Shown one piece after another: positions 1,146 to 21,848 of a DNA stretch of 64,000 nucleotides. The stretch comes from Spirochaetia bacterium (GTDB lineage: Bacteria > Spirochaetota > Spirochaetia > WTKD01 > G963693115). How positions within the stretch are numbered: position 1 is the stretch's first letter; every line of letters starts with the position of its first letter. The translations under genes were made by a program, and so were the position numbers. Where the stretch lies: the NCBI GenBank assembly GCA_965226065.1, contig OZ245332.1, positions 98,206 to 162,205 on the forward strand, given 5' to 3'. The notes beneath the pieces were generated by a model. That model saw only the letters and a list, made by a program, of their open reading frames with translations. It ran no database searches and was not told the origin of the DNA.

Positions 1146-1262
1146 ATAGACCTTTGATTAAAGAACGCACAGGAAAAGTTAGTCGCTTTAGGATTAATGA
1201 TAAGGAAATCTACGCAAGAATCATCATCAAGAACAAGAGACTCTCTTCTTAGGAGGCACAAC

Positions 1263-4074: not shown

Positions 4075-5004
4075 TTAAAAAAGTAATTCAGGAGCGTGAT
4101 TTATGACAAATAGCGCCAAATCTTCATGAGCTAATAAATCAATAGGCTTTCCAAACTCATCAGATTTTTCATCAATCTCTTTTTCTATCGTCTCTGTGCT
4201 TTCGGCAGTGGTAGCTATTATTCCTCCATGTGCATCGTAATGCTCTATTGCGCCTACAATCTGTTCGACTGCATGTGTATTCTCTATTCTTCCTTCATAA
4301 GATTTTACTTGCACAACGATCAAATGTGGATATTCTATATTATTCGCTATTTTGATGTTCGTCTCTATAATTAGATCTGCCCCATGATCCGTACCCCAGC
4401 CTACTTCATTAAGTGTTACATCTTTTACATCGGGAACTTTTTTAAATACCTTATATAAAAATTCCTCAAGGTTTTTACTCTTATTCATTTGTTGAATCTT
4501 TACAGCGATATTGCTTAGCATGGGGGTCAGTTCTTTTTTGAGATGATGTATTTCTCTCGTCTCTCCGCCTTCAAGTTGTATCTTATTACTTTTTAAGTTC
4601 TCTATAGATTCATGAAATGCGTCTTCCGCACGTATTCTTTGAAATCTTTGTCGAGGTTTCAGATTAACTGTGGGTAGAACATTTGCATTCTTTCTATCAA
4701 ACTCTATCACCGTACTGGTATCAACTTCAAAGTAATGCGGAAAGGCACTAGTTTTCTCTCCAAATTTATATTCTGACGTAATTCTCGCAGCGGTACAGTG
4801 TCCTTTCCGTGGTGAATTGATAAACACGATCCAATCATCTTTATGTACTTGACGAAGACGTTCAAAATATTGATATGGTTCTTTTGGGATTCCTTCCTCC
4901 CCAGCATGTATTCGTACTGTTCCTTCATGCATCCAATCTTTGATTTGTTCTCTAATTTCGTCCTTGCATCCTTTCCATGATGCCCCAACTGACCATACTG
5001 CCAT
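4075..5004 (-). CDS. Restriction endonuclease-like protein with C-terminal Mrr-cat (PD-(D/E)xK) domain and an N-terminal domain of unknown type
   Basis: The C-terminal GWGTDHGADLIIETN....HLIVVQVKSYEG fits the Mrr catalytic-core pattern (DGGIDG...D..I...IQAK). The ~130-aa N-terminal region was not recognised. Confidence 0.5.
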   Translation of the reverse strand: MAVWSVGASWKGCKDEIREQIKDWMHEGTVRIHAGEEGIPKEPYQYFERLRQVHKDDWIVFINSPRKGHCTAARITSEYKFGEKTSAFPHYFEVDTSTVIEFDRKNANVLPTVNLKPRQRFQRIRAEDAFHESIENLKSNKIQLEGGETREIHHLKKELTPMLSNIAVKIQQMNKSKNLEEFLYKVFKKVPDVKDVTLNEVGWGTDHGADLIIETNIKIANNIEYPHLIVVQVKSYEGRIENTHAVEQIVGAIEHYDAHGGIIATTAESTETIEKEIDEKSDEFGKPIDLLAHEDLALFVINHAPELLF

Positions 5005-5253
5005 AATTCTTACCTCCTACATATAACATATATAAATTATTTGGAAATCAATTTTCAACAAAGGGTTAAATCTAAAATCCATACCATGCACTATAGCAAA
5101 ACCTAGCGTCTTATGCAAGTACACAAGGTCTAATATCCCTTTACTTAATACATAATGTCATAGATACATTGTGTCGACACTTGAGATACGCTCACAAGTT
5201 TTCTCGGGACATGTAGCGTCCTACAACAGAGACATGTATATGATCACGCAAGA

Positions 5254-6501
5254 TTACATTGTATCTCGCGTGGCTCCGAAACTCAGCAAGTACTCACGAT
5301 AGTACTCGTACTGTGCTCTGCGTGCCTTAAGTTCTGCAGGCAAGCCGATGCTTATGTCGTTCACTAAGGCGTCAAACTTGTCTAAAAGAGACACAATGCG
5401 TTCTTGCACAGGTAGGGGAGGTATGGGGATGGTGAGTTTAGCAACATCTTTTGAATAAACATGAGGAACTCCGCTTCCGCTTTTAAGATTGTGTAATACA
5501 TTTTGACAGTTTTTTAAAAAATGAAAAGCATATTTTGTAAGCAATAAACATTTATTTGTTTTTATTGAAAAGGCATCTGATACAAAAATTTCGGTCGTCC
5601 AATAACTAACAAAACCCGCATACGCACCGCTTCCCGCAATTACAATTGTTTCGCCATCTCTATTTCCTTTGTTATGATAATAGGCCGCTTTTCTGCCACC
5701 TGCAATAACAGGGATGTCACCACTTGAAATATTTTTTTTAGTTATGGATGTTCCTCGCTTAAGTTCCGCAACTTCTCCCAACGCCCTCCACTCCACGTCA
5801 TCGCCAAAGGTGAGAAGCTTCTCACGGTAGTGCTTATACTGCGCTACGCGCGCCTCAAGCTCCGCCTCAAGCTCCGCCTCAAGCTCCGCCTCAAGCTCCG
5901 CCTCAAGCTCCGCCTCAAGCTCCGCCTCAAGCTCCGTGAATGTGTCTAGCACGCCTACAATGTACTCTTGCACAGGTAGGGGTGGTATGGGGATTAGATA
6001 TTTTTTTATATCGTTAAAATTAACTGATGAAAATGTTGCACCAGAAGCTTTACTGGCAAGTACTTGTCCATGTATTTGCATAATATGAAAAAGATATTTG
6101 CTTATAACTTTTTTAGTAGCTTGTATTCCACATAAACCTCTGCCTATACAAATTTTTCTATCAGTATAATTTATTGCCCCTACAGGTGCTCGAACACTCA
6201 TTATTACGTTATGAGCTTCTATAATTTTTGTTATTTTAGAAGTATGCTTTTGAGAGTTAGCAACAACATAGTTAGTAAAATGGGATTTTCCTTGATGAAA
6301 TTCTAAATCATTTTTGTTTGATGAAACAAACTTACCTTCTGGAGATTGTCCCATTATAAGATTAAAGTAATTTATATCCCCCAGCGCTCTATACTCCACC
6401 CCGTGCGGGCAGTGCTCGGCCATCAGCCGTTCCAGCGTATTCATAGTGCACTCATGATGGTTCGCCAATAATCCCGCATAGTCCCATGATATCATGCACA
6501 T
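5254..6501 (-). CDS. hsdS: Type I restriction-modification specificity subunit HsdS (copy 1; TRD-A + TRD-B), with 7 tandem ELEA repeats in the central spacer
   Basis: Two-TRD architecture. Conserved central and C-terminal segments: IPIPPLPVQE...LD.FTELEA...RVAQYKHYREKLLTF and IPIPPLPVQERIVSLLDKFDALVNDISIGLPAELKARRAQYEYYREYLLSF. Seven 12-bp units (cctcaagctccg) at 5853..5936 encode (ELEA)7. No hsdM or hsdR in the window. The start may really be at the MNTL... methionine rather than MCMIS.... Confidence 0.85.
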   Translation of the reverse strand: MCMISWDYAGLLANHHECTMNTLERLMAEHCPHGVEYRALGDINYFNLIMGQSPEGKFVSSNKNDLEFHQGKSHFTNYVVANSQKHTSKITKIIEAHNVIMSVRAPVGAINYTDRKICIGRGLCGIQATKKVISKYLFHIMQIHGQVLASKASGATFSSVNFNDIKKYLIPIPPLPVQEYIVGVLDTFTELEAELEAELEAELEAELEAELEAELEARVAQYKHYREKLLTFGDDVEWRALGEVAELKRGTSITKKNISSGDIPVIAGGRKAAYYHNKGNRDGETIVIAGSGAYAGFVSYWTTEIFVSDAFSIKTNKCLLLTKYAFHFLKNCQNVLHNLKSGSGVPHVYSKDVAKLTIPIPPLPVQERIVSLLDKFDALVNDISIGLPAELKARRAQYEYYREYLLSFGATRDTM

Positions 6502-6708
6502 GTGTTGGAAGAGACATAGACATGTGTTGAATTGTACACTATTTATATATAACTCCCTTAATGTATCACAATGGTCTTAAATGAATTCCTGCATATTTAA
6601 TAATTTGAGGTTTACAAATGGATTTACATGTATCACGGCAACCTGTCTTTGACCTTTTAAAGTACATTCATCGGTCTATGGGCTATACTCAAACGTAAGG
6701 AGCATCGC
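6502..6708. promoter_or_regulatory. Conserved divergent intergenic leader between hsdS and the TPR-DUF2971 gene (copy 1 of a ~185-bp near-identical element; copy 2 at 13408..13592; partial third copy 15870..15911)
   Basis: 6540..6708 is near-identical to 13420..13592. It ends in ...ggctatactcaaac(g/a)taaggagcatcgcATG, a TATACT -10-like hexamer followed by an AAGGAG RBS. It presumably holds divergent promoters for both genes. Confidence 0.45.
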
Positions 6709-8661
6709 ATGACTCAAGGCATAGAATTGAACTTCAATAGAGCGACACGATATCGCAAAGAAGGCAAATATGAAGAGGCGATAGAAACGCTTACATTGAT
6801 TATCAAATCAGACGCACCAGATGACATCAAGGCAGGTGCATACTACAATAGAGGCGTTGCCAAACACGACTTAGAGAGATACGAGGAAGCGATAAGGGAT
6901 TACGACAAGGCGATAGAGCTACAGCCTAAGCTTGCCGAGGCATACAACAACAGAGGACTTGCCAAACACGACTTAGAGAGATACGAGGAAGCGATAGCGG
7001 ATTACGACAAGGCGATAGAACTACAGCCTAAGTTTACCGAGGCATGGTACAACAGAGGACTTGCCAAATACGCCTTACAGAGGTACGAGGAAGCGATAGC
7101 GGATTACGACAAGGCGATAGAACTACAGCCTAAGCTTGCCGGGGCATACAACAACAGAGGACTTGCCAAACACGACTTAGAGAGATACGAGGAAGCGATA
7201 GCGGATTACGACAAGGCGATAGAGCTACAGCCTAAGCTTGCCGAGGCATACAACAACAGAGGCAATGCCAAACGTAGCTTGGGGAGATACGAGGAAGCGA
7301 TAAGGGATTTCGACAAGGCGATAGAGCTACAGCCCGACTATGCTAAGGCATACAACAACAGAGGACTTGCCAAACACGACTTAGAGAGATACGAGGAAGC
7401 GATAGCGGATTACGACAAGGCGATAGAACTACAGCCTAAGCTTACCGAGGCATGGTACAACAGAGGACTTGCCAAATACGCCTTACAGAGGTACGAGGAA
7501 GCGATAGCGGATTACGACAAGGCGATAGAACTACAGCCTAAGCTTGCCGGGGCATACAACAACAGAGGACTTGCCAAACACGACTTAGAGAGATACGAGG
7601 AAGCGATAGCGGATTACGACAAGGCGATAGAGCTACAGCCTAAGCTTGCCGAGGCATACAACAACAGAGGCAATGCCAAACGTAGCTTGGGGAGATACGA
7701 GGAAGCGATAAGGGATTTCGACAAGGCGATAGAGCTACAGCCCGACTATGCTAAGGCATACAACAACAGAGGACTTGCCAAACACGACTTAGAGAGATAC
7801 GAGGAAGCGATAGCGGATTACGACAAGGCGATAGAGCTACAGCCTAAGCTTGCCGAGGCATACTACAATAGAGGCAATGCCAAATACAAATTAAAAAGAT
7901 ATGAAGAGGCGAAAGACGACCATCATCAGGCAATTAAGCTGCAATGTGAGAATGCACAAGAAAAATATAAGCCCATAACAAGCTATAAGTTCAGACCCAT
8001 CAATAAAAACACCATAAGCCTTTTGGTACAAGGTGAATTATATTTTAGCGATATTCCATCCCTGAACGACCCGCTGGAATGCCCCCTGATGCACTTCATG
8101 TATAAAGATATATTCAAAGATGCCAATAAGCCGCACATTTTGTCACTGGTTGTCCCCTCTCATCAACATACAAAAAACAAAGACGGAATATATACGGATC
8201 TGGTAAACAACACCTTGCTCTTCAGCCATTATGCTGATTCACACAAGGGCATATGCATAGAATACGAAATACAAGAAACACTATTAAAACAAGAACAAGC
8301 ACGCATATTCTACACCTCTGTACAATACAGCACAAACACAGAAGCACAAAATATTGAAAAACTCTTTGCCATTAAGGATGAAAAATGGAAATACGAGAAC
8401 GAAGCGCGCTTTATAGCCTTTGATGAGCAACAAGAGCCAACACGCCCGGGCAACATATATAAAGGTGGTGTGCACATTAAGAAAATAATATTCGGACTTG
8501 AAACGCCTAAGGAAGACAAAAAGCTATTGTACACCCTCTTGCACAAAGAAAACAAAGAACATTTACAAGGCATAAAGTTTTTTAACACAGAAAGCAAACC
8601 CAAAAGCTTTTTCACCCTGAAGTTTACGCCGTATACACCGCCAGACCAGGTTGGTTCATAA
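6709..8661 (+). CDS. TPR-repeat protein with C-terminal DUF2971 domain (paralog 2, roughly 11-12 TPR units; contains a perfect ~408-bp 4-TPR tandem duplication)
   Basis: Same unit structure as paralog 1. The C-terminal domain reads LLVQGELYFSDIPSLNDPLECPL, LLFSHYADSHKGICIEYEI and KWKYENEARFIAF. The 6937..7344 segment is repeated at 7345..7752 almost base for base. Confidence 0.85.
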   Translation: MTQGIELNFNRATRYRKEGKYEEAIETLTLIIKSDAPDDIKAGAYYNRGVAKHDLERYEEAIRDYDKAIELQPKLAEAYNNRGLAKHDLERYEEAIADYDKAIELQPKFTEAWYNRGLAKYALQRYEEAIADYDKAIELQPKLAGAYNNRGLAKHDLERYEEAIADYDKAIELQPKLAEAYNNRGNAKRSLGRYEEAIRDFDKAIELQPDYAKAYNNRGLAKHDLERYEEAIADYDKAIELQPKLTEAWYNRGLAKYALQRYEEAIADYDKAIELQPKLAGAYNNRGLAKHDLERYEEAIADYDKAIELQPKLAEAYNNRGNAKRSLGRYEEAIRDFDKAIELQPDYAKAYNNRGLAKHDLERYEEAIADYDKAIELQPKLAEAYYNRGNAKYKLKRYEEAKDDHHQAIKLQCENAQEKYKPITSYKFRPINKNTISLLVQGELYFSDIPSLNDPLECPLMHFMYKDIFKDANKPHILSLVVPSHQHTKNKDGIYTDLVNNTLLFSHYADSHKGICIEYEIQETLLKQEQARIFYTSVQYSTNTEAQNIEKLFAIKDEKWKYENEARFIAFDEQQEPTRPGNIYKGGVHIKKIIFGLETPKEDKKLLYTLLHKENKEHLQGIKFFNTESKPKSFFTLKFTPYTPPDQVGS

Positions 8662-8860
8662 ACTCTACATGTGTTAAAAGAGACACGGAGCGATGCCAAC
8701 AGAGAGACGGAAACGCCCCCCACCCGACATGTCCATGTCTTTGGTATCTCTGGTAGCCATCAAAACCTGACTTTACACAAAAAAACCCCTGATGACTTGA
8801 TTATGTAAAAGGCCGTGTTATGATAACATTCAGTAACATTTAATCAACAAGGAGTAAACC

Positions 8861-9776
8861 ATGATGATATATAAGAAAGCAATAGCCCTTCTGTCCCTTC
8901 TTTTGACCTTAATTATCGCAGCATGCGAAAACCCCCAACCAACATAGAGAAAAACGGTAAAGCCGACACGGATACAGACTCCGAAGGAGAATCTGCAGGC
9001 GAAACAGGCAACGAATCCGAAGACGATGGCGAAGACGCAGCCCCCGCCGCATATAGTTTTGCATTTGACACGGCAGCCACAAGGTTGCATTCACCTCAGG
9101 TGGCACATACACCCGTGCCGTCGTCGAGACAAACAAGCCCGCAGGCGACGCACGGGCTACTACATATACCTCAAGCGAGGGCAAGATAGCCACGGTCAAC
9201 GAAGCAGGTGTCGTAACCTTTGTGACCCAGGGCACGGTGACCATCACGGCCACCAAGACAGCGGAACCTGGCCATGAAAAAGCTACTGCCAGCTATGAAC
9301 TTACCATTACCAAAATGAAGCCCGCAAATAAACAGGCACTTGCCAATGAAATAACCCGAGCGATGGATGCACACGGCAACAAAGTCAACCTCAACTACAT
9401 AGACGTCTCTGATATCACCGACATGAGCTATCTTTTTAGTAGCCATGCATTCGGTTATGGGCGTCAGGCATTCAATGGCGACATATCAGAGTGGAAGGTG
9501 GCAAAGGTGACCAATATGTTCGCTACGTTTGAAGGTGCTACTGCGTTCGATCAGAATATCTCAAAGTGGGATGTGTCAGGGGTTGAAGATATGGTTTTTA
9601 TGTTTAAGGATGCAACCTCGTTCAAGCAGAACCTCAATGCATGGGGGAACAGAATAAACAACGCTTTAAAAGCTGATAAATGGAGAAATACAAAAATTAT
9701 GTTTACAGGCAGCGGTCTTGCGGACAATCTCCCTTCATGGTGTGCAAGTGTGCAAGCGTGTAGAAATGGACAATAA
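8861..9776 (+). pseudogene. BspA-like (DUF285) surface lipoprotein gene disrupted by two frameshifts
   Basis: AAGGAG RBS then MMIYKKAIALLSLLLTLIIAACENPQPT-stop. The frame continues in +1 after a C5 tract (8932..8936) as ...AAYSFAFDTAATR. A second shift occurs near 9075..9085 into the 9222..9776 frame (VAFTSGGTYTRAVVETNKPAGD...TYTSSEGKIATVNEAGVVTFV...). That frame aligns with the 18585..19640 protein and carries DUF285 units (NLNYIDVSDITDMSYLF..., ISKWDVSGVEDMVFMF). Confidence 0.6.
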
Positions 9777-9787
9777 AGGAGGAACAC

Positions 9788-9915
9788 ATGGCTATAGAAT
9801 ATAAAGTCATTCCACGCAAGATATTGGCGGGAGAAGACAAAGGCAAAGTAAAATACTACGCCACAACAAGCAACACCGGACGAACAGACCTTGATGACTT
9901 TATAAATATTATTCA
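9788..9915 (+). pseudogene. Possible truncated HU-like (Bacteroidetes-type histone-like) DNA-binding protein N-terminus
   Basis: AAGGAGG RBS, then MAIEYKVIPRKILAGEDKGKVKYYATTSNTGRTDLDDFINI resembles the N-terminus of Bacteroides-type HU-family proteins. The rest of the ORF overlaps the opposite-strand ImmA gene and looks non-coding. Confidence 0.25.
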
Positions 9916-10398
9916 GATTCCAAGTCGTATAGACATTGCTCCAAATGAAACATCGAATTCATTTGCTAAAATATGGGCAAGTTCTGCATGGAATCCCAGG
10001 TCAAAACATTCTATATAATGGTTGGCTCTCTCTTTAACCTTGTGAAGGGGCATTATTATATCAGCTGCCAGCTTATTAGCTTGAATTTCCTGATTGTTGC
10101 TTAGCAAGCTTCTGTATAATGGATCGTCAAATATCCCATCTCCTATGCTTTCCTTATGCAAGAAAAAATGGGCAAGCTCATGGGCTAGTGTAAATCTCCT
10201 CCGTTGAGGGGAATGCTTTAAATTTATAGTAATTCGGTAATTGTCGTTTACCTTCACTATCTTGCCAGACATCTCTCCCATATATTCATTTTCAACATCA
10301 ATATTATTATCCTTTGCAATACTTTCAAGATTAACAGGGTAGGAGTCAAGATATTTTTCTTTCAAACTTTTTGCGATATCCAGTCTATTGCTGTCCAT
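9913..10398 (-). CDS. ImmA/IrrE-family (DUF955) zinc metallopeptidase
   Basis: HExxH in LAHELAHFFLH, plus the downstream LAAD.IMP context typical of ImmA/IrrE anti-repressor proteases. Confidence 0.7.
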   Translation of the reverse strand: MDSNRLDIAKSLKEKYLDSYPVNLESIAKDNNIDVENEYMGEMSGKIVKVNDNYRITINLKHSPQRRRFTLAHELAHFFLHKESIGDGIFDDPLYRSLLSNNQEIQANKLAADIIMPLHKVKERANHYIECFDLGFHAELAHILANEFDVSFGAMSIRLGI

Positions 10399-10401
10399 TT
10401 G

Positions 10402-10845
10402 TCACTCCTTATTCACTTTTTTAGCATCATCAACATCAGAAGTACTTAATGCGTAAATATCGCCCGCCTTCATTCTTTCGTTTGTCTTTTTCATTACTTC
10501 CTCTACTATGGAATCTGTTTTATTTTTAATAAAGTCATCAGCTTTCCTATTTATGATTTCAGTTACTTTTGAATTTATTTCTTGCCAACCGATGATAGCC
10601 AGGATTCCGCCACCCATTGTTATGGTCGCTATAATTATTCCCAGTAAAGATATTTGAAAACTTAAAGCGTCAACATTACTGAGGTTTTCTGAATTCGCAA
10701 ACTTGAAAAACCCAAATACAATAAGTAGCAAGAAAAAAGCTCCAATCACAACAAGAAAAAATGTTAAAATGAGTATTAAAACTCCAGATTTTGGTTTACC
10801 TTCAGCTTTTTTGACTTTTTCTTTATTCCCCGGAGAACCAACCAC
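10402..10845 (-). CDS. Small membrane protein (2 predicted TM helices), co-directional and 3 nt upstream of the ImmA-like gene
   Basis: Two long hydrophobic stretches (VLILILTFFLVVIGAFFLLLIVFGFF and LLGIIIATITMGGGILAIIGW). No HTH motif recognised. Confidence 0.45.
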   Translation of the reverse strand: MVGSPGNKEKVKKAEGKPKSGVLILILTFFLVVIGAFFLLLIVFGFFKFANSENLSNVDALSFQISLLGIIIATITMGGGILAIIGWQEINSKVTEIINRKADDFIKNKTDSIVEEVMKKTNERMKAGDIYALSTSDVDDAKKVNKE

Positions 10846-10904
10846 TTATCTATTATGACACAGGTATCTAAATATAACAACAATATGCTGTATAAAATCT
10901 TTTT

Positions 10905-11394
10905 CCTCCATGAACCGCGTATTTTCTCACTCGTGGTTCCACCTCCCAATGACAAACCAGATGAGCATGGGATACATGAGGTCGTACGCAACACACTTCT
11001 TTTCAGCCACTATGCAGATGCGCACAAGGGAATATGCATAGGGTACGAAATAGCTCCAGAGTTTCTGCAACAAGGCACGATGTTCTATACACCTGTGCAA
11101 TATAGCAAGAATACAAGACCAGATAGCCTGGAGAAGCTCTTTGCCATTAAGGATGAGCTATGGAAATATGAGCATGAGGGGCGTTTTGTAGCCTTTGGCA
11201 CAGAGAAACACTATCAATTGCAAGGGAATTCACGCATTACAAGGCTTATCTTTGGGCTTAAAACACCTGAGGAAGACAAGACTTTGTTGTCGAAACTTCT
11301 ACAAGGCAAAGGAATAGACTTATATGATACCTACAGTGATGAATATAGTTCTTTTGATCTCAAGTTTAGGGAACACGGGGCAACATCTTTTTGA
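10905..11394 (+). pseudogene. Truncated copy of the DUF2971 C-terminal domain (about 97% identical to residues of paralog 1; no TPR region and no N-terminal NDPxE segment)
   Basis: 10911..11375 encodes EPRIFSLVVPPPNDKPDEHGIHEVVRNTLLFSHYADAHKGICIGYEI...LWKYEHEGRFVAF.... This is near-identical to 3334..3790, but with a different 3' end and unrelated upstream codons. Confidence 0.7.
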
Positions 11395-11502
11395 CAAAGG
11401 CTTTGCAGGCAATTGGTTTGAGCCCCACCAATGGGCCTATGGTAGACGATGAACATTTATTCTATGCAGCTTGGACTCTTAGTATCTTGATCACGCCCTA
11501 GC

Positions 11503-11847
11503 TTAGTCTTTCCAACTGTACAGCGTCCCATCATCGCGTATCGCCACTGTGTGATCCCCACATGTCGCAACAGCATTCCATTTTTCGATCCCTACTTTGA
11601 CGGGACTAGTCTGATGCTTCATATGCCATAGTGTCCCATCATCGCGTATCGCCACTGTGTGATCCCCACCTGCCGCAACAGCCTTCCATCTTCCGATCCC
11701 TACCATGTTGGGACTAGTCTGATAATTACGCCCTTTCCAAATACACAGCGTCCCATCATCGCGTATTGCCACTGTGTGATCCCTACCTATCGCAACAGCC
11801 TTCCATCTTCCGATCCCTACCTTGTCGGGACTAGTCTGATAATTCAT
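11503..11847 (-). pseudogene. RCC1-repeat (beta-propeller blade) protein fragment
   Basis: Three near-identical blades: GIGRWKAVA.G.DHTVAIRDDGTL..WK (RCC1-like GxxHTVAL..DGxLxxWG). Only 114 aa with no upstream continuation, so likely a remnant. Confidence 0.45.
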
Positions 11848-12180
11848 ATGCCATCTCCTTTATAAAATAAAATTTGTGAAAGCTGCTTAATATACAAGCA
11901 ACATTTTCAATTATATAAAGTATAGAAAACAAAACACAATAATACAATAGGTAAAATTAAAATGTGATGCAAGCTTGTCCAAGAACCCCATTCCTAAGCT
12001 TCTGCCTACCATACGGAGATGCCCTTATCAGCATACCGTTCTAAGCAATACGCAATATGCCTTTGAACTTTAGGGCACAAGTCCAAGAAGTTTACTAAAT
12101 AAATTTTTAGAGACACCTAGTGATAGCCAACAGCGACACATAGCGTCCTACAACAGAGACATGTATATGATCACGCAAGA

Positions 12181-13407
12181 TTACATTGTATTTCGCGTGG
12201 CTTCGAAACTAAGCAAGTACTCACGATAGTACTCGTACTGTGCTCTGCGTGCCTTAAGTTCTGCAGGCAAGCCGATGCTTATGTCGTTCACTAAGGCGTC
12301 AAACTTGTCTAAAAGAGACACAATGCGTTCTTGCTCTGCAAGGGGCGGTATGGGGATAGAAAACTTATTTATTATTGAAGAATTTATATTATTGATAGTA
12401 GTGCTACAGATACTTTTTTTAAGATATTGCAAGAAATTACCGCTACCTAACAAATAAAAAATAAATTGAGAATTAATACTTTTATTACATCTTATAACTG
12501 CCATAAAGCCACCAAAGTAGTAATCTATATTGTTATTAATATATGCAACTTTTCCTACATGGGCTTTACTTCCACTTGCTACGCTCATAAGAATATCACC
12601 TTTTTTTAACTTTTGCGTATCTTTAATTTTGGTATCTTTAGACACAACTTTAACATCTTCAAAGTTTAATCTATTATTTAATATGTCAATATTATTCGCT
12701 CTTAATATTTTGAAACCACTGTTTAAAGTTGTTTCCTGCGATTTATTGTAAGTAACCCCTCGCACATATTTAGCAATTTCTCCTAATTCTCTATATTCCA
12801 CGTCATGGCCAAAGGTGAGCAGCTTCTCACGGTAGTACTTATACTGCGCTACGCGCGCCTCAAGCTCCGCCTCAAGCTCCGTAAAGCTGTCGAGTATCTT
12901 TACGATTGCTTCTTGCACAGGTAGGGGTGGTATGGGTATGGGCAGTTTGGCAACATCTTTTGAATAAACATGAGGAACTCCGCTTCCGCTTTTAAGATTG
13001 TGTAATACATTTTGACAGTTTTTTAAAAAATGAAAAGCATATTTTGTAAGCAATAAATATTTATTTGTTTTTATTGAAAAGGCATCTGATACAAAAATTT
13101 CGGTCGTCCAATAACTAACAAAACCCGCATACGCACCGCTTCCCGCAATTACAATTGTTTCGCCATCTCTATTTCCTTTGTTATGATAATAGGCCGCTTT
13201 TCTGCCACCTGCAATAACAGGGATGTCACCACTTGAAATATTTTTTTTAGTTATGGATGTTCCCCGCTTAAGTTCCGCAACTTCTCCCAATTCTCTATAC
13301 TCCACCCCGTGCGGGCAGTGCTCGGACATCAGCCGTTTCAGCGTATTCATAGTGCACTCATGATGGTTCGCCAATAATCCCGCATAGTCCCATGATATCA
13401 TGCACAT
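12181..13407 (-). CDS. hsdS: Type I R-M specificity subunit HsdS (copy 2; TRD-B + TRD-C), 2 ELEA repeats in the central spacer
   Basis: Identical N- and C-terminal conserved regions to copy 1. Its first TRD (GEVAELKRGTSITKKNISSGDIPVIAGG...AKLPIPIPPLPVQE) is the same sequence that forms the second TRD of copy 1; its second TRD is unique. Only two cctcaagctccg units are present. Confidence 0.85.
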   Translation of the reverse strand: MCMISWDYAGLLANHHECTMNTLKRLMSEHCPHGVEYRELGEVAELKRGTSITKKNISSGDIPVIAGGRKAAYYHNKGNRDGETIVIAGSGAYAGFVSYWTTEIFVSDAFSIKTNKYLLLTKYAFHFLKNCQNVLHNLKSGSGVPHVYSKDVAKLPIPIPPLPVQEAIVKILDSFTELEAELEARVAQYKYYREKLLTFGHDVEYRELGEIAKYVRGVTYNKSQETTLNSGFKILRANNIDILNNRLNFEDVKVVSKDTKIKDTQKLKKGDILMSVASGSKAHVGKVAYINNNIDYYFGGFMAVIRCNKSINSQFIFYLLGSGNFLQYLKKSICSTTINNINSSIINKFSIPIPPLAEQERIVSLLDKFDALVNDISIGLPAELKARRAQYEYYREYLLSFEATRNTM

Positions 13408-13592
13408 GTGTTGAATTGTACACTATTTATATATGATTCCCTTAATGTATCACAATGGTCTTAAATGAATTCCTGCATATTTAATAATTTGAGGTTTACA
13501 AATGGATTTACATGTATCACGGCAACCTGTCTTTGACCTTTTAAAGTACATTCATCGGTCTATGGGCTATACTCAAACATAAGGAGCATCGC
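13408..13592. promoter_or_regulatory. Second copy of the conserved hsdS/TPR divergent leader
   Basis: Near-identical to 6540..6708. Confidence 0.45.
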
Positions 13593-15512
13593 ATGACTCA
13601 AGGCATAGAATCGTACTTCAATAGAGCGACACGATATTACAAAGAAGGCAAGTATGAAGAGGCGATAAAAACGCTTACATTGATTATCAAATCAGACGCA
13701 CCAGATGACATCAAGGTAGGTGCGTACAACAACAGAGGACTTACCAAAGACAGCTTGGGGAGCTACGAGGAAGCGATAAGGGATTACGACAAGGCGATAG
13801 AGCTACAGCCCGACTATGCCGCAGCATACCACAACAGAGGACTTGCCAAAAACAGCTTACAGAGATACGAAGAAGCGATAAAAGATTACGACAAGGCGAT
13901 AGAGCTACAGCCCGACTATGCCAATGCATGGTTCAACAGAGGCGTTACTAAATACAACTTAAGAAGATACGAGGAAGTGATAGAGGATTACGACAAGGGG
14001 ATAGAACTACAGCCCGACGATGCTAAGGCATACCACAACAGAGGTGTTGCTAAATACAACTTAAAAAGATACGAGGAAGCGATAGAGGATTACGACAAGG
14101 CGATAGAGCTACAGCCTAAGCTTGCCGAGACATACAACAACAGAGGCACTGCCAAATACAACTTACAGAGATACGAGGAAGCGATAGAAGATTACGACAA
14201 GGCGATAGAGCTACAGCCTAAGCTTGCCAAGGCATACTACAACAGAGGTAATGCGTACCATGAGCAAGCACAATACAACAAAGCAATAGTAGACTACACG
14301 CAGGTCATTAAACTGCCCACAGATGATAACACCAAAGCAGGAGCGTATGCTGGCAGAGGTACTGCATACGCCAAGCAAAAAGAATACAACGAAGCAATAA
14401 ATGATTTCAATGCTGCCCTACAGTACGGCATATCCGATGAAGTTATAAAAACATATCGCAAGCAAGAAGAAAAGGGCATTGCTAAAAACATATTAGAAGT
14501 ATTTGAAAGCACGGCGCAGATATTAAACCAACTAAAAGTACCTAAAGATTCTAAAGACACAGAATATCTTTCGCATACTACTAGATTGCCCGTGTTTATT
14601 CAACTCCTTGTTCCTGCACATAAGAACGAAAAACAACCACTAGGGATCTTTCGTATGTACCACATTGCCTACACCAACGACCCAACTGAAGGCAGGGTCT
14701 TGTTCAATAATATGAATATACCCCTTGATGAAGCAACACAGGGTAGGGACATACCTTATGTGATGGTAACAAGCTTTTGTGGAGGTAAAAACCCACAAGC
14801 ATTAGACACCTTGCCCATATGGAAGATGTACGGCGATGATGCACAAGGCATAGGCCTGTTATTTAAGAAAAGCGACATAGCCTACGATAAAAAAGGACAT
14901 GCCATGCCACATTATTTTGAATCTACTATGCTTAGCGACACTGGAAATACCAATAAGAAAGTCACACATGCGACATCACAACCCTTGCCAAATGAAGCAG
15001 ATGAAAAGAATGTTACACCCCCACAGATACTCTACAAGGTCTACTATGTGAAGAGTGATGAAACAGATGAAACAAAGAGTGATGAAATATATGGAAAGTT
15101 AAAAGACATAAAAACAAATCTTGAGACGATACAGAAACAACAAGATATACACAACAAAACCCTAGAGTTGCTAAACGGTATACGGTATCTCATAAAAGAC
15201 ATAAAATATGCCTACGAAGAAGAATACCGCCTCTTGTGCTTTGCAAATAAGGAACAAGTCCCAAAGATACTACAAAGCCAAGACATCACAGAACAAACTG
15301 AAAGCACCAAAGACACGAATACGGGTAGTCTACCACGTATACGTATCTACATAGAGACAGAAATATTAAAAAAACTCTGCAAGGTAATAACCGCCCCTAA
15401 AGTAAATAAGGAACAAGCCTTAAACATACAGTATCTTTTGCATTTCTATAAGGAAGAATTGCCAAAGCTGGAAGAAGAACCCCTATATACCAGCAATATA
15501 CCCTACCGCTAA
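13593..15512 (+). CDS. TPR-repeat protein (roughly 7 units) with a divergent, insertion-containing DUF2971-like C-terminal domain (paralog 3)
   Basis: N-terminus MTQGIESYFNRATRYYKEGKYEEAI plus TPR units as in paralogs 1 and 2. The C-terminal domain has GIFRMYHIAYTNDPTEGRVLF (NDPxE motif) and KYAYEEEYRLLCF (W/YxYExE-R motif) with extra inserted sequence. Confidence 0.8.
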   Translation: MTQGIESYFNRATRYYKEGKYEEAIKTLTLIIKSDAPDDIKVGAYNNRGLTKDSLGSYEEAIRDYDKAIELQPDYAAAYHNRGLAKNSLQRYEEAIKDYDKAIELQPDYANAWFNRGVTKYNLRRYEEVIEDYDKGIELQPDDAKAYHNRGVAKYNLKRYEEAIEDYDKAIELQPKLAETYNNRGTAKYNLQRYEEAIEDYDKAIELQPKLAKAYYNRGNAYHEQAQYNKAIVDYTQVIKLPTDDNTKAGAYAGRGTAYAKQKEYNEAINDFNAALQYGISDEVIKTYRKQEEKGIAKNILEVFESTAQILNQLKVPKDSKDTEYLSHTTRLPVFIQLLVPAHKNEKQPLGIFRMYHIAYTNDPTEGRVLFNNMNIPLDEATQGRDIPYVMVTSFCGGKNPQALDTLPIWKMYGDDAQGIGLLFKKSDIAYDKKGHAMPHYFESTMLSDTGNTNKKVTHATSQPLPNEADEKNVTPPQILYKVYYVKSDETDETKSDEIYGKLKDIKTNLETIQKQQDIHNKTLELLNGIRYLIKDIKYAYEEEYRLLCFANKEQVPKILQSQDITEQTESTKDTNTGSLPRIRIYIETEILKKLCKVITAPKVNKEQALNIQYLLHFYKEELPKLEEEPLYTSNIPYR

Positions 15513-15911
15513 GTAGGAAATCCCGTACCCATATGCATTACCACAGACACAAGAATCACACAGAAGACTTGTTATACTTGTTACAAAGGAAGTGCTCATG
15601 AAACAACAAGCAAACCCGAAAGCCTTTTTACCCTAAAGTTCAGGCCAGGTTCGTTCAAAAAAAAAGTTCTAATTATTAGCATCAGTGTCGGAAGACATGA
15701 GCTATCTCTTTTATAACACCACTGTATCTACCTTTGGGGGATGTTTGAATTCTCTTTGGCAAGACCTGCGAATCACTTAAAAAGAATATGCATGTCTCTT
15801 TGGGATTTATACGATCGTTTCGTGTACCTTTGTGTCATAGAGGCATGACGCCTCAGCCTTGTTTAGCTATTCATCGGTTTATCGGCTATACTCAAACGTA
15901 AGGAGCATCAC

Positions 15912-16163
15912 ATGACTCAAGGCATAGAATCGTACTTCAATAGAGCGACACGATATTACAAAGAAGGCAAGTATGAAGAGGCGATAGCGAATTATGACAA
16001 AGCGATAGAACTACAGCCCGAAGATGCCGATGCATGGTTCAACAAAGGAACAAACAGCATTATGATTATGATAGAACGACAAAGCATGGGGAAACCGAAG
16101 GTGCGTCTTTGTTATTGTATTTATCAAAATAGTCAAGAAATAAGCAGTATAGAATATTTATAA
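15912..16163 (+). pseudogene. N-terminal fragment (leader + first TPR) of a fourth TPR-DUF2971 family gene
   Basis: MTQGIESYFNRATRYYKEGKYEEAIANYDKAIELQPEDADAWFNKG, then unrelated sequence and a stop. It is preceded by a partial copy of the conserved leader (15870..15911). Confidence 0.55.
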
Positions 16164-16183
16164 GGTTAAGAAGTAATGGAATT

Positions 16184-16816
16184 ATGAAGTGTATTTTAAT
16201 GTTTTGTTATGCGGGTCTCATTGTGCTTCTTGCTTCTTGTAGATCTGTGGCAACTTATACAGATAGTCCAGATGGTCAATTTTTTTATTCAGTGAGTAAG
16301 CAGGAAGAAACGAAATATGGTGATATTTTTGTTGTTATTGAAAAATATCGTTATTATCCGGTCTTTTTTAGTCAAGTAGAGCGTATGTTTTATGAAATTA
16401 ATCAAGCGAATCCTTTGGATGGCTATCATGCAAATACTTATAATTTTATACAATATAAGGGTTTTCGAGGCTCACAAATTGAATGTAAAATCAACGTAAG
16501 TCAAGTGGGACTTATAATTACTTACACACTGCCTAAAATTAGTGCGGATGTAAGGGATAAAAAAATCTTAAAAATTTGGAATAGATATTATTCCGCTTTA
16601 CTAAAGCATGAGCAAAATCATGCTGAGTTTGGTCGCATTGCAGCCAAAAGAATATACGATGTGTTGAGAAAAAACTTAAATAAGCCATGCGAGCAAGAAA
16701 TGCAAAAAGAAATTGATGAAATTTTTGCGTGGCATGCTAAACAACATAAAGAATATGATGAAAAAACGAATCATGGGAAAAAAGAGGATGCGTATTTGCC
16801 ATTTTATTTACCTTAA
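16184..16816 (+). CDS. Secreted lipoprotein with HExxH-type motif (HEQNH), DUF922/COG5661-like predicted Zn-peptidase
   Basis: Signal peptide and lipobox (LLASCRS). LLKHEQNHAEFGRIAA resembles the HEQGH motif I recall for DUF922 proteins. The gene sits between duplicated copies of the 3' end of paralog 3. Confidence 0.5.
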   Translation: MKCILMFCYAGLIVLLASCRSVATYTDSPDGQFFYSVSKQEETKYGDIFVVIEKYRYYPVFFSQVERMFYEINQANPLDGYHANTYNFIQYKGFRGSQIECKINVSQVGLIITYTLPKISADVRDKKILKIWNRYYSALLKHEQNHAEFGRIAAKRIYDVLRKNLNKPCEQEMQKEIDEIFAWHAKQHKEYDEKTNHGKKEDAYLPFYLP

Positions 16817-16839
16817 AATGAGAAGAAAGACATCACAGA

Positions 16840-17300
16840 ACAAACTGAAAGCACCAAAGACACGAATTATACGTATCTACATAGAGACAGAAATATTAAA
16901 AAAACTCTGCAAGGTAATAACCGCCCCTAAAGTAAATAAGGAACAAGCCTTAAACATACAGTATCTTTTGCATTTCTATAAGGAAGAAGAACCCCTATAT
17001 ACCAGCAATATACCCTACCGCTAAGTAGGAAATCCCGTACCCATATGCATTACCACAGACACAAGAATCACACAGAAGACTTGTTATACTTGTTACAAAA
17101 GGAAGTGCTCATGAAACAACAAGTAAACCCGAAAGCCTTTTTACCCTAAAGTTCAGGCCAAGTTCGTTCAAAAACAAAAAGTTCTAATTATTAGCATCAG
17201 TGTCGGAAGACATGAGCTATCTCTTTTATAACACCACTGTATCTACCTTTGGGGAATGTTTGAATTCTCTTTGGTAAGACCTGCGAATCACTTAAAAAGA
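16840..17300 (+). repeat. Degenerate duplicate of the 3' end and downstream region of TPR paralog 3 (matches ~15290..15800)
   Basis: 16856..17015 encodes ...RIIRIYIETEILKKLCKVITAPKVNKEQALNIQYLLHFYKEE..EPLYTSNIPYR, the paralog 3 C-terminus with small deletions. 17016..17300 repeats 15513..15800 (gtaggaaatcccgtacccatatgcattaccacagacacaag...). Confidence 0.7.
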
Positions 17301-17494
17301 ATATACATGTCTCTTCTCTAAGGTCTCTACAGTAACTAGTATCAGTGTTAGAAGACGCTAGATATCTTATGAAAGAAATGCGCTCTTAGGATATACTAGA
17401 GGTGTTGATTCCTCTAAGGTAGAAATCTACAGAACCATGAAATAGACAAAAGCTTGTATAGGATAAGTGAATCATCACGTAAGGAAAAGAAACG

Positions 17495-18580
17495 ATGGAC
17501 ATAGAACTGAAAGAAATTACGGTACGTGAATTAACCGAAGGCTACAAAGACAACAAAGAAGGCGGAGTTGTTGGCTATGCAGGCAGGCTAGACATCCGCC
17601 CGCCGTTTCAACGAGAGTTTATTTATAAAGAGCATCAAAAAAATGCCGTCATCGACACCATCACCAAAGGCTTTCCTTTAAACGTGATGTACTGGGCAGT
17701 GCGCAGCGATGGTAAGAGTTTTGAAATCATAGACGGACAACAGCGCAGCATCTCCATATGCCAATATGTATCTCACGAATTTTCCTTTGAGGGACGGTAC
17801 ATCCACAATCTGCAAGAAGACGAGCAAGCGCAGATATTGAACTACAAGCTGATGGTTTATTTCTGCCGTGGCACAGACAGTGAAAAGCTCAAGTGGTTCA
17901 AAACCATTAACATAGCGGGGGAAAGGCTTACTGACCAAGAGTTAAGAAACGCCGTGTATTCAGGCTCGTGGGTTAGCGATGCGAAGAGATATTTTAGCAA
18001 AGGGGGTTGTCCTGCCTACGAAATCGGAAATGGCTATCTCAATGGTTCTGCCATACGGCAAGAGTATCTTGAGACCGCTATCAAGTGGATAAGCAACAAC
18101 AAGATAGAAGACTACATGGGAAAACAGCAGCACAAACCCAATGCCAACGAACTGTGGTTGTACTTTCAGGGAGTCATTAATTGGATTAAAGCAACCTTTC
18201 CCACCTATCGCAAAGAGATGAAAGGCTTAGAATGGGGCGATTTGTATGTCCGCTACAAAGATAGCCATCTTGACTCTCAAAAGCTTGAAGAAGAAATCGC
18301 TACATTGATGCAAGATGACGATGTAACACGAAAACAAGGCATTTACGCCTATGTGCTCACAGGAGAAGAAAGGCACTTGAACATCCGCGCCTTTACGGAC
18401 AATCAAAAACGGGAAGCTTACGAAAAACAAGAAGGTATATGCACACAGTGTAAAAAACACTTTAGCATAGAAGATATGGAAGCCGACCACATCACCCCGT
18501 GGCATGAAGGTGGAAAAACCATACCTGAGAACTGTCAAATGCTGTGCAAAGAAGATAACAGAAGAAAATCAGGTAAATAA
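17495..18580 (+). CDS. DUF262 (GmrSD N-terminal, ParB-like) + HNH endonuclease protein; likely type IV (modification-dependent) restriction-type nuclease
   Basis: The EIIDGQQR motif is diagnostic of DUF262. The C-terminal CTQCKK...ADHITPWHEGGKT...NCQMLCKEDNRRK is a classical HNH motif. Confidence 0.75.
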   Translation: MDIELKEITVRELTEGYKDNKEGGVVGYAGRLDIRPPFQREFIYKEHQKNAVIDTITKGFPLNVMYWAVRSDGKSFEIIDGQQRSISICQYVSHEFSFEGRYIHNLQEDEQAQILNYKLMVYFCRGTDSEKLKWFKTINIAGERLTDQELRNAVYSGSWVSDAKRYFSKGGCPAYEIGNGYLNGSAIRQEYLETAIKWISNNKIEDYMGKQQHKPNANELWLYFQGVINWIKATFPTYRKEMKGLEWGDLYVRYKDSHLDSQKLEEEIATLMQDDDVTRKQGIYAYVLTGEERHLNIRAFTDNQKREAYEKQEGICTQCKKHFSIEDMEADHITPWHEGGKTIPENCQMLCKEDNRRKSGK

Positions 18581-18584
18581 CGCT

Positions 18585-19640
18585 TTAATCCGGACGTTTT
18601 TTAGCACAAGGACCTTTGCACCATGTGGGAAATCTAGAAAAAACAGGTAGAAATTCTCTAAGAAACATATCCCGTTTATATATTCTCTTAAACTTGAAGT
18701 AGTTTCCCCATTTTTGGAGATCTTGATTGAATGCGTTAGCATTCTTGAACATGTATGCTATATTTGTAACTGCTCTCATGTCCCAATCCGATATATCTTG
18801 ATTAAAGCTTGTAGCACTTTGAAACATGCTTCTCATATCCGTAACCGCCGCTACGTTCCATGTCCCTATATTTTGATTAAAGCTTGTAGCACTTTCAAAC
18901 ATGCTTTTCATATCCGTAACCGCCGCTACGTTCCATGTCCCTATATTTTGATTAAAGCTCGTAGCACCGACAAACATTTGGCGCATATTTTCAACTTCTA
19001 ATACCTTCCAGCCTGATATGTCGATGTTAAAAACTGTATTATCTTGAAACATTTCCTCCATAGTTCTTACCTTAGAAGTATCCCACATGGAGATATCGCC
19101 ATTGAATTCGTGAAACCCATAGCCTTCTACTTCTAGACTTACCTCATGATCTTTTCTAAACAGCGAGCTCATATCGGTGATGGCAGAGGTGTCTATGTAG
19201 TTGAGGTCGACCATATTTCCTTTAGCAGTCGTAGCTCGTTCTATTTCAGCTACCAGAGCGTCCTTAAGTTGGGGTTTGAACTTTTCTATGTTTAATTTGT
19301 AGCTGTCAGTTATCTCATCGTATCCATCTGAAGCTTCTTTTGTAGCGGTGATGGTAACTTTGCCCAAGCTAACAAAGCTTACTACTCCTGCATTATCGAC
19401 CGTGGCTATCGCTTTATTACTTGATGTATACACAATATCTCGGGTATCGCCTGTTGGCTTACTTGTTTCGCTTACGGGTTTGTTGTATGTGCCATTTGTC
19501 GTGTATTCAACCTCGTAGCTGTTTTTATCAAAGGCAAAGCTGTAAGCGACAGACTTGTCTGTTTTTTTTGATTTTGGACTATCGCATGCTGCGATAAAAA
19601 AGGTAAATGCAAGTATTAAAATTACATTAAAATGTTTCAT
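18585..19640 (-). CDS. BspA-like (DUF285, Mycoplasma-type LRR) surface lipoprotein
   Basis: Lipobox FIAACDSP. C-terminal repeats of about 26 aa (SFNQNIGTWNVAAVTDMKSMFESAT; FNGDISMWDTSKV). Confidence 0.8.
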   Translation of the reverse strand: MKHFNVILILAFTFFIAACDSPKSKKTDKSVAYSFAFDKNSYEVEYTTNGTYNKPVSETSKPTGDTRDIVYTSSNKAIATVDNAGVVSFVSLGKVTITATKEASDGYDEITDSYKLNIEKFKPQLKDALVAEIERATTAKGNMVDLNYIDTSAITDMSSLFRKDHEVSLEVEGYGFHEFNGDISMWDTSKVRTMEEMFQDNTVFNIDISGWKVLEVENMRQMFVGATSFNQNIGTWNVAAVTDMKSMFESATSFNQNIGTWNVAAVTDMRSMFQSATSFNQDISDWDMRAVTNIAYMFKNANAFNQDLQKWGNYFKFKRIYKRDMFLREFLPVFSRFPTWCKGPCAKKRPD

Positions 19641-19911
19641 AGTTTTTTCCTTCTTTAATTTACTACTTAACTAATTTACTACTTATACTATACGCCGGGG
19701 CTAAGGCAATTAAGTTTTTTAATAACAATAAATATCTTTTATATTATATCATTTCTTTCTTGCACTGGTTGCGTCTATGTTATATGTCGCGGTGCTTCTT
19801 TTGTATTTTGCGTTTTCTTGAAGTTCTGCAGTAATAGTATACACTCTGAGGCTGGCATAATATCTGATTGTAACTTCCCCGCTACTGCTGTTAATGGTAA
19901 CACCGAAGTTC

Positions 19912-20467
19912 TTAGGTTCTTATGCTATATCTTATATTTCGGTTATCTCCTGCAACTGCTCCACTCTTACTAGCTGTTTGAGTAATTGTAGTACTTTTTC
20001 GTTTTATTGTTTTGCGGCTTGTGTCTGCAAAGCTTAAAGTATTACCCTGTTTTCTTGTAAATTCAATCGGCTCACTTGCTACCTCCTCGCCACCAAACGA
20101 AGCAACTACGATTACATTTTGTGCTGCGTGCGTTGCGGTAATCTTCATTGCGGGATTGCTTGCGGGATTTTTTGCCTCCTTAGCAGTAACTCCGCTAAGT
20201 GTTATTCTAGGTGGCACTGTTTTTCTTAAAGCGTAAGTATATCCCGCTGTTTTTCTAAAAATTATATCCGTATCCCACGGTACAGATTTATCACTAAACG
20301 CGGGCTTAGTTAGTGTAGACTTTGTTCCCCCTTTGTTGGCTTCTACAACTGTTTCAGTAGCTGCCTCATTGAGTGCTTTCTTGAGTTCTGCCTTTGCTTT
20401 CTTTTCATCGCATGAGATGAATAAAGCCAATGCAATAAATATTATTACTATATATATAATTCTTCAT
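19912..20467 (-). CDS. Lipoprotein related to the N-terminal domain of the BspA-like family (no LRR part); the ATG with RBS is out of frame across a (TA)5 tract
   Basis: Body (ALFISCDEKKAKAELKK...TKPAFSDKS...FRKTAGYTYALRKT...VIVVASFGGEEVASEPIEF) aligns with the N-domains of the 20499..21830 and 21849..22739 proteins. The minus strand shows AAGGAG-aaattatt-ATG (ATG = complement of 20465..20467). That frame reads MKNYIYSNNIYCIGFIHLMR-stop; the body frame is entered 1 nt later. The ORF track starts at an internal TTG at 20430. Confidence 0.5.
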
Positions 20468-20498
20468 AATAATTTCTCCTTATTTTGTTTTTTATGTA

Positions 20499-21830: not shown

Positions 21831-21848
21831 AATAATACTCTTCTTTTT

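Follow-up and report, generated by a model that had tools for sequence, protein, structure and literature searches.

Does the left part of the 64,000-nucleotide stretch of contig OZ245332.1 from a Spirochaetia bacterium (hereafter the window) hold a genuine defence island and, if so, do the members of this island act together? Genes of several restriction and defence types lie close together in it: three genes coding for TPRs followed by a DUF2971 domain (TPR-DUF2971), a Mrr-like nuclease gene, two hsdS genes, a fragment of an EcoRI-family methylase gene, a DUF262-HNH nuclease gene and a gene for an ImmA-like peptidase. The original prediction had taken this clustering as the mark of a defence island, had proposed a defence role for the TPR-DUF2971 genes through guilt by association and had suggested that the Mrr-like gene might work with them. 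Our analysis indicates that positions ~1-23,300 are probably a variable region specific to the lineage, where restriction and anti-phage genes accumulated, were duplicated and partly decayed, with members that are independent rather than parts of one system. The activities named below, as well as any anti-phage effect, are predicted from domain identities, folds and conserved catalytic residues.

Every element named by the original prediction was recovered at its place by open reading frame (ORF) listing, Pfam and PADLOC searches, and of the 13 ORFs or ORF fragments compared with PADLOC models between 0.9 and 19.6 kb, 10 gave matches, several over their full length. Such profile matches are unspecific when taken alone and need system-level rules before they can be read as defence; further to the right, a housekeeping Clp-family ATPase (47484-49994) matches PDC-M37B (E 4e-40) and FtsK (53789-56560) matches SspH (E 3e-68), both through shared ATPase domains. 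The clustering of defence-type genes in the left ~23 kb was judged real because the sequence from 23.4 to 64 kb is filled with housekeeping genes (gap, pgk, tpi, lysA-like, carAB, clp, ftsK, tig, clpX and transporters); several distinct types lie within ~20 kb, and they vary among relatives. The locus is syntenic in a 1.80-Mb sister genome (L001), with DNA identities of 97-98% in the flanks and ~88% in the middle, and in two other relatives (L026 and L027) an orphan hsdS, a Mrr-like gene, DUF285 genes and a DUF2971 gene of the paralog-3 type are found within a few kb of one another. The cluster is therefore conserved as a whole in L001 and in part in L026 and L027. No integrase or transposase was found among the window ORFs scanned, and the sole tRNA of the window is at 62.6 kb; Rfam returned nothing besides and an NCBIfam search yielded nothing extra. 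The island probably extends to the left of position 1. In L001 a Fic/Fic_N gene (19222-20361) lies ~6 kb past what would be the left edge of the window.

Beyond the internal TPR repeats, the region contains at least six segmental duplications of 118-978 bp with 88-98% identity, and by sequence comparison it is a mosaic, shaped by paralogous cassettes that recombined and left several gene fragments behind. The longest duplicated segment pairs 6387-7364 with 13293-14248, and shorter ones pair 5208-5430 with 12135-12357 and 5401-5796 with 12910-13305, the latter (97% DNA identity) covering an hsdS target-recognition domain. Segment 3324-3786, from the DUF2971 domain of paralog 1, is 98% identical in DNA to 10909-11371, and the DUF2971 ORF found there (10855-11394, + strand; PDC-S31, E 7.6e-24) is a truncated additional copy of that domain, a pseudogene fragment. 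The segment 13550-13667 recurs at 15869-15986, at the start of a stretch (15869-16163) that consists of a copied TPR-gene promoter and 5' end joined to the final ~70 nt of another methylase remnant and contains an 83-residue ORF for a TPR N-terminal fragment (15912-16163, + strand). Finally, 15280-15800 is 92% identical to 16827-17315: the 3' end of TPR paralog 3 and its downstream flank have been copied into the 680-bp gap between a DUF922 lipoprotein gene (16184-16816, + strand) and the DUF262-HNH gene. The DUF262-HNH nuclease may once have stood directly after a TPR gene.

Decay is seen in the methylase that goes with the DUF262-HNH nuclease, two genes which the original prediction had listed as separate items. 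The methylase fragment (930-1145, + strand) matches Pfam EcoRI_methylase with an E-value of 7.5e-27, its 71 residues facing a profile of 345 positions. Comparison by tblastn with three full-length plasmid methylases revealed that residues 1-43 of the ~347-residue enzyme are joined in frame to residues 266-287, with deletion of the catalytic core that bears the NPPF motif, so that the predicted truncation of an EcoRI-like N6A methylase was borne out. The nuclease (17495-18580, + strand) carries GmrSD_N (DUF262) and HNH domains by Pfam, with DGQQR and HNH motifs present, and matches the PADLOC model REase_II PDLC03418 with an E-value of 2.4e-143 (residues 1-361 aligned with 1-372). Its plasmid homologues, of which tblastn returned 43 records at at least 80% coverage, are 49-69% identical over the full length, and of the 15 plasmid matches listed, 8 have a neighbouring gene annotated as "adenine-specific methyltransferase EcoRI family protein". 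On Sulfitobacter, Macrococcoides and Ligilactobacillus plasmids a gene for a 347-350-residue methylase lies immediately upstream of the nuclease gene, overlapping or abutting it (abutting in Macrococcoides). Methylase followed by nuclease is, from these sequences, a conserved two-gene operon across phyla. Both domain assignments therefore stand, and it is the independence of the two genes that falls: both are remains of one such module.

In the window this module has been torn apart. The methylase remnant lies 16 kb from the nuclease, with the DUF922 gene and duplicated TPR-gene segments in between, and no intact ~347-residue methylase with NPPF was found immediately upstream of the nuclease, the window holding just the 930-1145 fragment and a ~70-nt tail at 16074-16143. 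The sister genome L001 retains two remnants. One is orthologous to 930-1145 (residues 1-43 and 266-345; 96% identical), and the other, comprising residues 1-272, forms a 288-residue ORF beside DUF922 and the nuclease. Apart from its last ~70 nt (16074-16143), this second remnant has been replaced in the window by the duplicated 5' end of a TPR gene. We rejected the insertion of a single cassette block into one methylase gene, since the two L001 remnants overlap and stand in the wrong order; the N-termini that they have in common are ~70% identical. Between the nuclease of the window and its counterpart in L001 there are 5 synonymous changes and a single non-synonymous one (binomial estimate against a neutral expectation of ~4:1, p ~0.001), which points to a gene still under purifying selection. 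The DUF262-HNH protein would thus be the surviving half of a Type II-style module whose methylase has lost its catalytic core. GmrSD-type Type IV status was rejected for this gene, as its C-terminal domain is a classical HNH (PF01844) and not DUF1524 and its homologues are consistently paired with a methylase. Of the GmrSD-like call made earlier, the DUF262 N-terminal domain and the HNH domain were retained and membership of the GmrSD, SspE or BrxU families was dropped. A complete GmrSD gene (DUF262 and DUF1524) is present near the Mrr-like gene in L027 (1-164).

A similar loss of partners characterizes the two hsdS genes, hsdS-1 (5254-6501; Methylase_S E 7e-45, Specificity_I E 5.7e-99) and hsdS-2 (12181-13407; Methylase_S, and Specificity_I E 3e-91), both on the - strand and both full length, with two target-recognition domains each and conserved coiled-coil regions. 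Neither hsdM nor hsdR was detected among the ORFs of the first 23 kb, among all ORFs of at least 343 residues in 23-64 kb, or within 10 kb on either side of hsdS in L001, L026 and L027, and the two genes were consequently considered orphans. They bear the marks of exchange. The second target-recognition domain of hsdS-1 (5401-5796) is the one that recurs, at 97% DNA identity, as the first domain of hsdS-2 (12910-13305), that is in swapped positions, and the 5' ends, shared divergent promoter regions and 3' ends of the two genes are 88-96% identical. In addition, a perfect 12-bp tandem repeat, CGCCTCAAGCTC, which encodes LEAE, is present in the central spacer in 7.2 copies in hsdS-1 (5851-5936) and 2.2 copies in hsdS-2 (12856-12881). 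In EcoR124I/II the number of such repeat units determines how long the recognition-site spacer is; two to three LEAE units are known to work, and seven are unusually many. Another orphan hsdS (390 residues) lies between an ABC-transporter operon and a penicillin-binding-protein gene in a further relative (L010 19365-20537); such orphans appear to be characteristic of the lineage.

These full-length ORFs with two recognition domains and conserved regions, the swapped domain, the variable repeat and the recurrence of orphan hsdS in relatives all speak for a reading in which the two genes encode functional, alternative specificity subunits for a Type I system with hsdM and hsdR at another place in the genome, and methylation specificity is diversified by domain swapping and the 12-bp repeat in a phase-variable regulon or in defence. 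Such an arrangement would be compatible with our explanation of the other genes, and we consider it possible but doubtful: the L001 orthologue is broken into ORFs of 101 and 168 residues, neither a recombinase gene nor an inverted hsdS copy lies nearby, both copies being on the same strand, seven LEAE units are far above the functional range, and hsdM is missing from the window and from the hsdS surroundings in L001, L026 and L027. On present evidence, the two genes display the classic sequence signatures of hsdS recombination and yet are stranded specificity genes. They would be orphan subunits with an exchanged target-recognition domain, functional only with HsdM and HsdR encoded elsewhere, if at all.

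The TPR-DUF2971 genes, all on the + strand, encode proteins of 871 (paralog 1, 1197-3812), 650 (paralog 2, 6709-8661) and 639 residues (paralog 3, 13593-15512) with 16, 11 and 7 TPRs, respectively. In paralog 1, ~16 near-identical TPRs (16 stretches matching TPR_1) precede a C-terminal DUF2971/PDC-S31 domain, and the protein passes the TPR-S (sensor TPR) cut-off. PDC-S31 is matched with E-values of 7.9e-26 by paralog 1, 3.7e-29 by paralog 2 and, weakly, 3.7e-4 by paralog 3, and Pfam DUF2971 scores 26.2 bits in paralog 2, 24.5 bits in paralog 3 and 19.5 bits, below the 22-bit cut-off, in paralog 1. The Asn of NDP, the Tyr of HY (motif II), a Lys and the ExE of motif III are invariant in an alignment of 36 sequences and are all kept in the three paralogs. 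Paralog 3, in which ExE reads YEEEYR, represents a divergent DUF2971 subtype with orthologues 86% identical in L001 and 88% identical in L027. The TPR arrays (1437-3250, 6711-8050 and 13595-14330) are built of 102-bp units ~75-86% identical within and between paralogs, a pattern which suggests recent expansion and gene conversion; paralog 2 also exhibits a higher-order duplication of a four-TPR block. Among the homologues retrieved, the fusion of TPRs to DUF2971 was found only in this clade.

The C-terminal domain of paralog 2 models as a DarT-like ADP-ribosyltransferase fold, and these findings independently reproduce published work placing DUF2971 in the ADP-ribosyltransferase superfamily near DarT and AbiGi (PMC12522546). 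No DarG-like macrodomain antitoxin was detected by Pfam in any neighbouring ORF, so that these genes are not DarTG. A 316-residue lactococcal DUF2971 protein, Aristaios, has been shown experimentally to act as a single-gene abortive-infection system (PMC11381338). Because direct evidence has been published (PMC11381338, PMC12522546) and PADLOC assigns PDC-S31, guilt by association is not needed to argue for these genes. On these direct grounds, the defence role proposed for them is plausible; their description as uncharacterised is no longer appropriate in view of the DarT-like fold, PDC-S31 and Aristaios. Each TPR-DUF2971 protein would most likely be a single-chain abortive-infection protein, in which the rapidly varying TPR array would bind a trigger and thereby free the DarT-like transferase to modify nucleic acid or an essential protein at the expense of NAD+, as proposed for Aristaios. 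We infer such sensing, or auto-inhibition of the transferase, by the TPRs.

Two bolder proposals can be made, and we regard them, taken jointly, as rather improbable. In the first, TPR-DUF2971 would be a new single-chain anti-phage ADP-ribosyltransferase architecture, in which a hyper-variable array of near-identical TPRs would both restrain a DarT-like domain and trigger it; with its three paralogs and their recombining cassettes, one genome would then possess a diversified sensor repertoire. In the second, the methylase/DUF262-HNH pair would be SspE-like, by analogy with a nuclease that is stimulated and not blocked by the host's own mark, and the nuclease would therefore have remained intact and constrained after loss of the methylase.

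The main rival for the TPR-DUF2971 genes is a role as host effectors, given the eukaryote-like repeat proteins around them and the small genome. The region would then be not mainly defensive but a plasticity zone of a small-genome, probably host-associated bacterium, with TPR-DUF2971 proteins serving as ADP-ribosylating effectors or toxins against a host or competitors and the restriction-modification genes persisting as debris. The source contig measures just 1.85 Mb, the neighbours include eukaryote-like repeat and surface proteins (DUF285, Big_2, RCC1), many genes are fragments, and ~18% of DUF2971 proteins, including Legionella lpg1268, are predicted effectors (PMC12522546). However, distant DUF2971 homologues occur beside AAA_21/RloB, Vsr and HinfI restriction-modification genes (in L010 a DUF2971-like gene adjoins a HinfI-type pair), PDC-S31 is a candidate derived from defence islands, Aristaios is anti-phage by experiment and paralog 1 is matched by the sensor-TPR model. 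Moreover, neither a secretion signal nor a secretion-system gene was seen in the window. We therefore hold this explanation to be unlikely.

The Mrr-like gene (4075-5004, - strand) encodes a 309-residue protein with a C-terminal Mrr_cat domain (E 1.1e-9) and ~165 N-terminal residues devoid of Pfam match. It belongs to a family of two-domain proteins of 310-325 residues, annotated just as "restriction endonuclease", which comprises 225 clusters at 50% identity with E-values up to 1e-3, 43 of them with E-values up to 1e-30. An AlphaFold2 model built from a 66-sequence alignment (mean pLDDT 89.8; residue numbering in the model is offset by one) displays an N-terminal YTH/EVE-like domain of the PUA superfamily, a linker helix and a C-terminal PD-(D/E)xK domain corresponding to Mrr_cat. 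Its best structural matches are MspJI and AspBHI, and at the level of the N-terminal domain they are EVE and YTH domains. The suggestion that this domain might be a modified-base reader thus found support in its beta-rich fold, which was identified by structure comparison alone, the family sequence profile giving no significant match in the PDB. D206, Q232 and K234 are invariant across the 66 family members, the window protein included. Reader plus nuclease is a known architecture of modification-dependent enzymes (PMC6765204, PMC7897488, PMC7641849), and the modelled protein would be a stand-alone Type IV-like enzyme whose YTH/EVE-like domain reads a modified base in incoming DNA and whose PD-(D/E)xK domain cuts. 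It is not E. coli Mrr (EcoKMrr) proper, a candidate rejected on account of its N-terminal domain, which is PUA-like and not a winged helix. The reader-like domain (4561-5004 in the window) is also found fused to an AAA_21 ATPase (P0414) and to an FRG domain with TPR repeats (P0418 and P0426). A relationship between FRG and DUF2971, which would have tied the Mrr-like gene to the cassettes, was rejected by hhalign (probability 0.1%).

As to its layout, the Mrr-like gene is downstream of hsdS-1 and co-directional with it, as predicted, and convergent (tail to tail) with TPR paralog 1, so that it is not head-to-tail with both. Paralogs 2 and 3 are in turn transcribed divergently from hsdS-1 and hsdS-2, respectively. 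In Vibrio (L002-5), in a Spirochaetota metagenome-assembled genome (L006-8) and in two other loci (L028 and L029), the neighbours of the Mrr-like family genes are unrelated to those of the window, with no hsdS, TPR, DUF2971 or DNA methylase gene adjoining them. A promoter scan of the region returned fewer matches than shuffled sequence and was not used. That TPR-DUF2971, the Mrr-like nuclease and hsdS form one cooperating defence cassette is highly improbable. In favour of it, the promoter regions of the two divergent hsdS/TPR-DUF2971 pairs are 88% identical, the Mrr-like gene is placed between paralog 1 and hsdS-1 in L001 as in the window, and in L027 it adjoins a gene of the paralog-3 type. 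Against it, the duplicated hsdS unit stops 46 bp past the stop codon and is followed by the Mrr-like gene in copy 1 and by an RCC1 fragment in copy 2 (a variable slot). In L026 and L027 the genes divergent from hsdS are different ones, neither hsdS nor a Mrr-like gene adjoins the DUF2971 homologues of L009, L010 and L011-14, and members of the Mrr-like family occur alone in four further lineages. The Mrr-like gene is also followed by a terminator-like hairpin of its own, and the suggested cooperation is left unsupported.

Several observations weigh against the region being an eroded island of independently acting defence genes. An intact and constrained nuclease devoid of its methylase is odd for a classical restriction-modification pair and would need a second methylase or a different mode of action; its persistence could reflect a second methylase elsewhere, recent loss or a non-classical mode. 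The Mrr-like gene has a ratio of non-synonymous to synonymous substitution rates of ~1 relative to L001 (55.7 non-synonymous and 14.3 synonymous changes), and the four source-clade orthologues deviate at ~15 of 46 family-conserved positions of the N-terminal domain, the consensus SRFGWS becoming VRIHAG. The residues replaced (30-35, 49-51, 61 and 82-89) are at least 80% conserved in the rest of the family, whereas the nuclease domain deviates at just 7 positions, about half of them conservatively (V/I, L/I). The source-clade reader may accordingly have changed in specificity, be degenerating or have lost its function. Lastly, in all four related genomes the Mrr-like gene is found within a few kb of a TPR-DUF2971 gene, so that a lineage-specific link is possible.

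The ImmA-like peptidase encoded at 9913-10398 (- strand) agrees with the earlier ImmA/IrrE metallopeptidase call, matching Peptidase_M78/IrrE (E 1e-18) and capP (E 4.8e-28) and carrying a HELAH motif (HExxH). It has no helix-turn-helix partner, the upstream co-directional ORF (10402-10845, - strand; 147 residues) being a predicted membrane protein with no helix-turn-helix match, and no effector gene adjoins it. A 48%-identical M78 gene, preceded by a 146-residue ORF, lies near a TPR-DUF2971 gene in L009. The protein would be an unpartnered regulator-type protease and it adds little to the defence argument. Among the remaining features are a TM2 protein gene (576-926, + strand) and an RCC1 fragment (11503-11847, - strand), counterpart of a complete 984-residue RCC1 protein in L026. 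Paralogous DUF285/Big_2 (BspA-like) lipoprotein or surface-protein genes, which contain 75-bp repeats, lie both beside and within the island (18585-22739 on the - strand and a DUF285 fragment at 9222-9776 on the + strand; L001 13944-19134). Also encoded in relatives (L009 1-5674, L010 2488-4944) are FliG, sigma-54, HPr kinase and a fusion of cytidylate kinase with S1, a combination typical of spirochaetes.

Judged from sequences and models, a Type I system and a restriction-modification module both prove incomplete, while the Type IV and DUF2971 assignments hold up in sequence and structure comparison. The locus is a genuine but ordinary, partly eroded defence island in which each gene type is already known, the TPR fusion to DUF2971 being the sole mildly new feature. 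It illustrates how an island erodes in a small genome, with a restriction-modification operon torn apart, specificity genes stranded and paralogous cassettes recombining. It further provides a structure-based assignment (YTH/EVE-like reader and PD-(D/E)xK) for a stand-alone nuclease family of ~225 clusters publicly called just "restriction endonuclease", and connects the TPR-DUF2971 genes with a domain whose anti-phage action has been validated before. Current understanding is not overturned; what is of interest is the fusion of TPRs to a transferase, together with the puzzling survival of the nuclease.

Compared with known systems, the methylase remnants and the nuclease (49-69% identical) belong to the same families as the plasmid operon of EcoRI-family methylase and DUF262-HNH nuclease (PADLOC MTase_II PDLC03297 and REase_II PDLC03418), from which the locus differs by a 71-residue methylase lacking its catalytic core and lying 16 kb off, with other genes between. 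As in Type I hsdS shuffling and spacer-repeat variation (EcoR124I/II; Mycoplasma and Bacteroides hsdS loci), a target-recognition domain is shared in different positions and a tetrapeptide repeat varies in the central conserved region, but here no hsdM or hsdR was seen in the 64-kb window, there is neither recombinase nor inverted orientation, and the repeat reaches seven units. Like MspJI, AspBHI and VcaM4I (PMC6765204, PMC7897488), the Mrr-like protein fuses a PUA-superfamily (SRA/EVE/YTH) reader to a nuclease; identity is just ~16-17%, however, its reader resembles YTH/EVE more than the SRA fold of MspJI and has in the source clade lost several family-conserved residues, and its nuclease domain is Mrr_cat (D...QxK). 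The HExxH peptidase of CapP/CapH-type ImmA/IrrE-helix-turn-helix pairs is present, and the adjacent Xre-type helix-turn-helix gene is absent. The locus resembles defence islands at large in its dense restriction-modification components, Type IV nuclease and abortive-infection-type candidates beside housekeeping genes, and in a content that varies between close relatives; it departs from them through its many orphans and fragments, through the lack of any integrase or transposase among the window ORFs scanned and through the DUF285 and RCC1 genes interspersed with the others. Finally, the TPR-DUF2971 proteins share with Aristaios, PDC-S31 and the DarT fold the DUF2971 domain, the ADP-ribosyltransferase fold, the conserved Tyr and ExE and the lack of a conserved partner gene, the likeness to Aristaios being one of domain and fold, whereas here the domain follows 7-16 near-identical TPRs and is present in three paralogs and two fragments.

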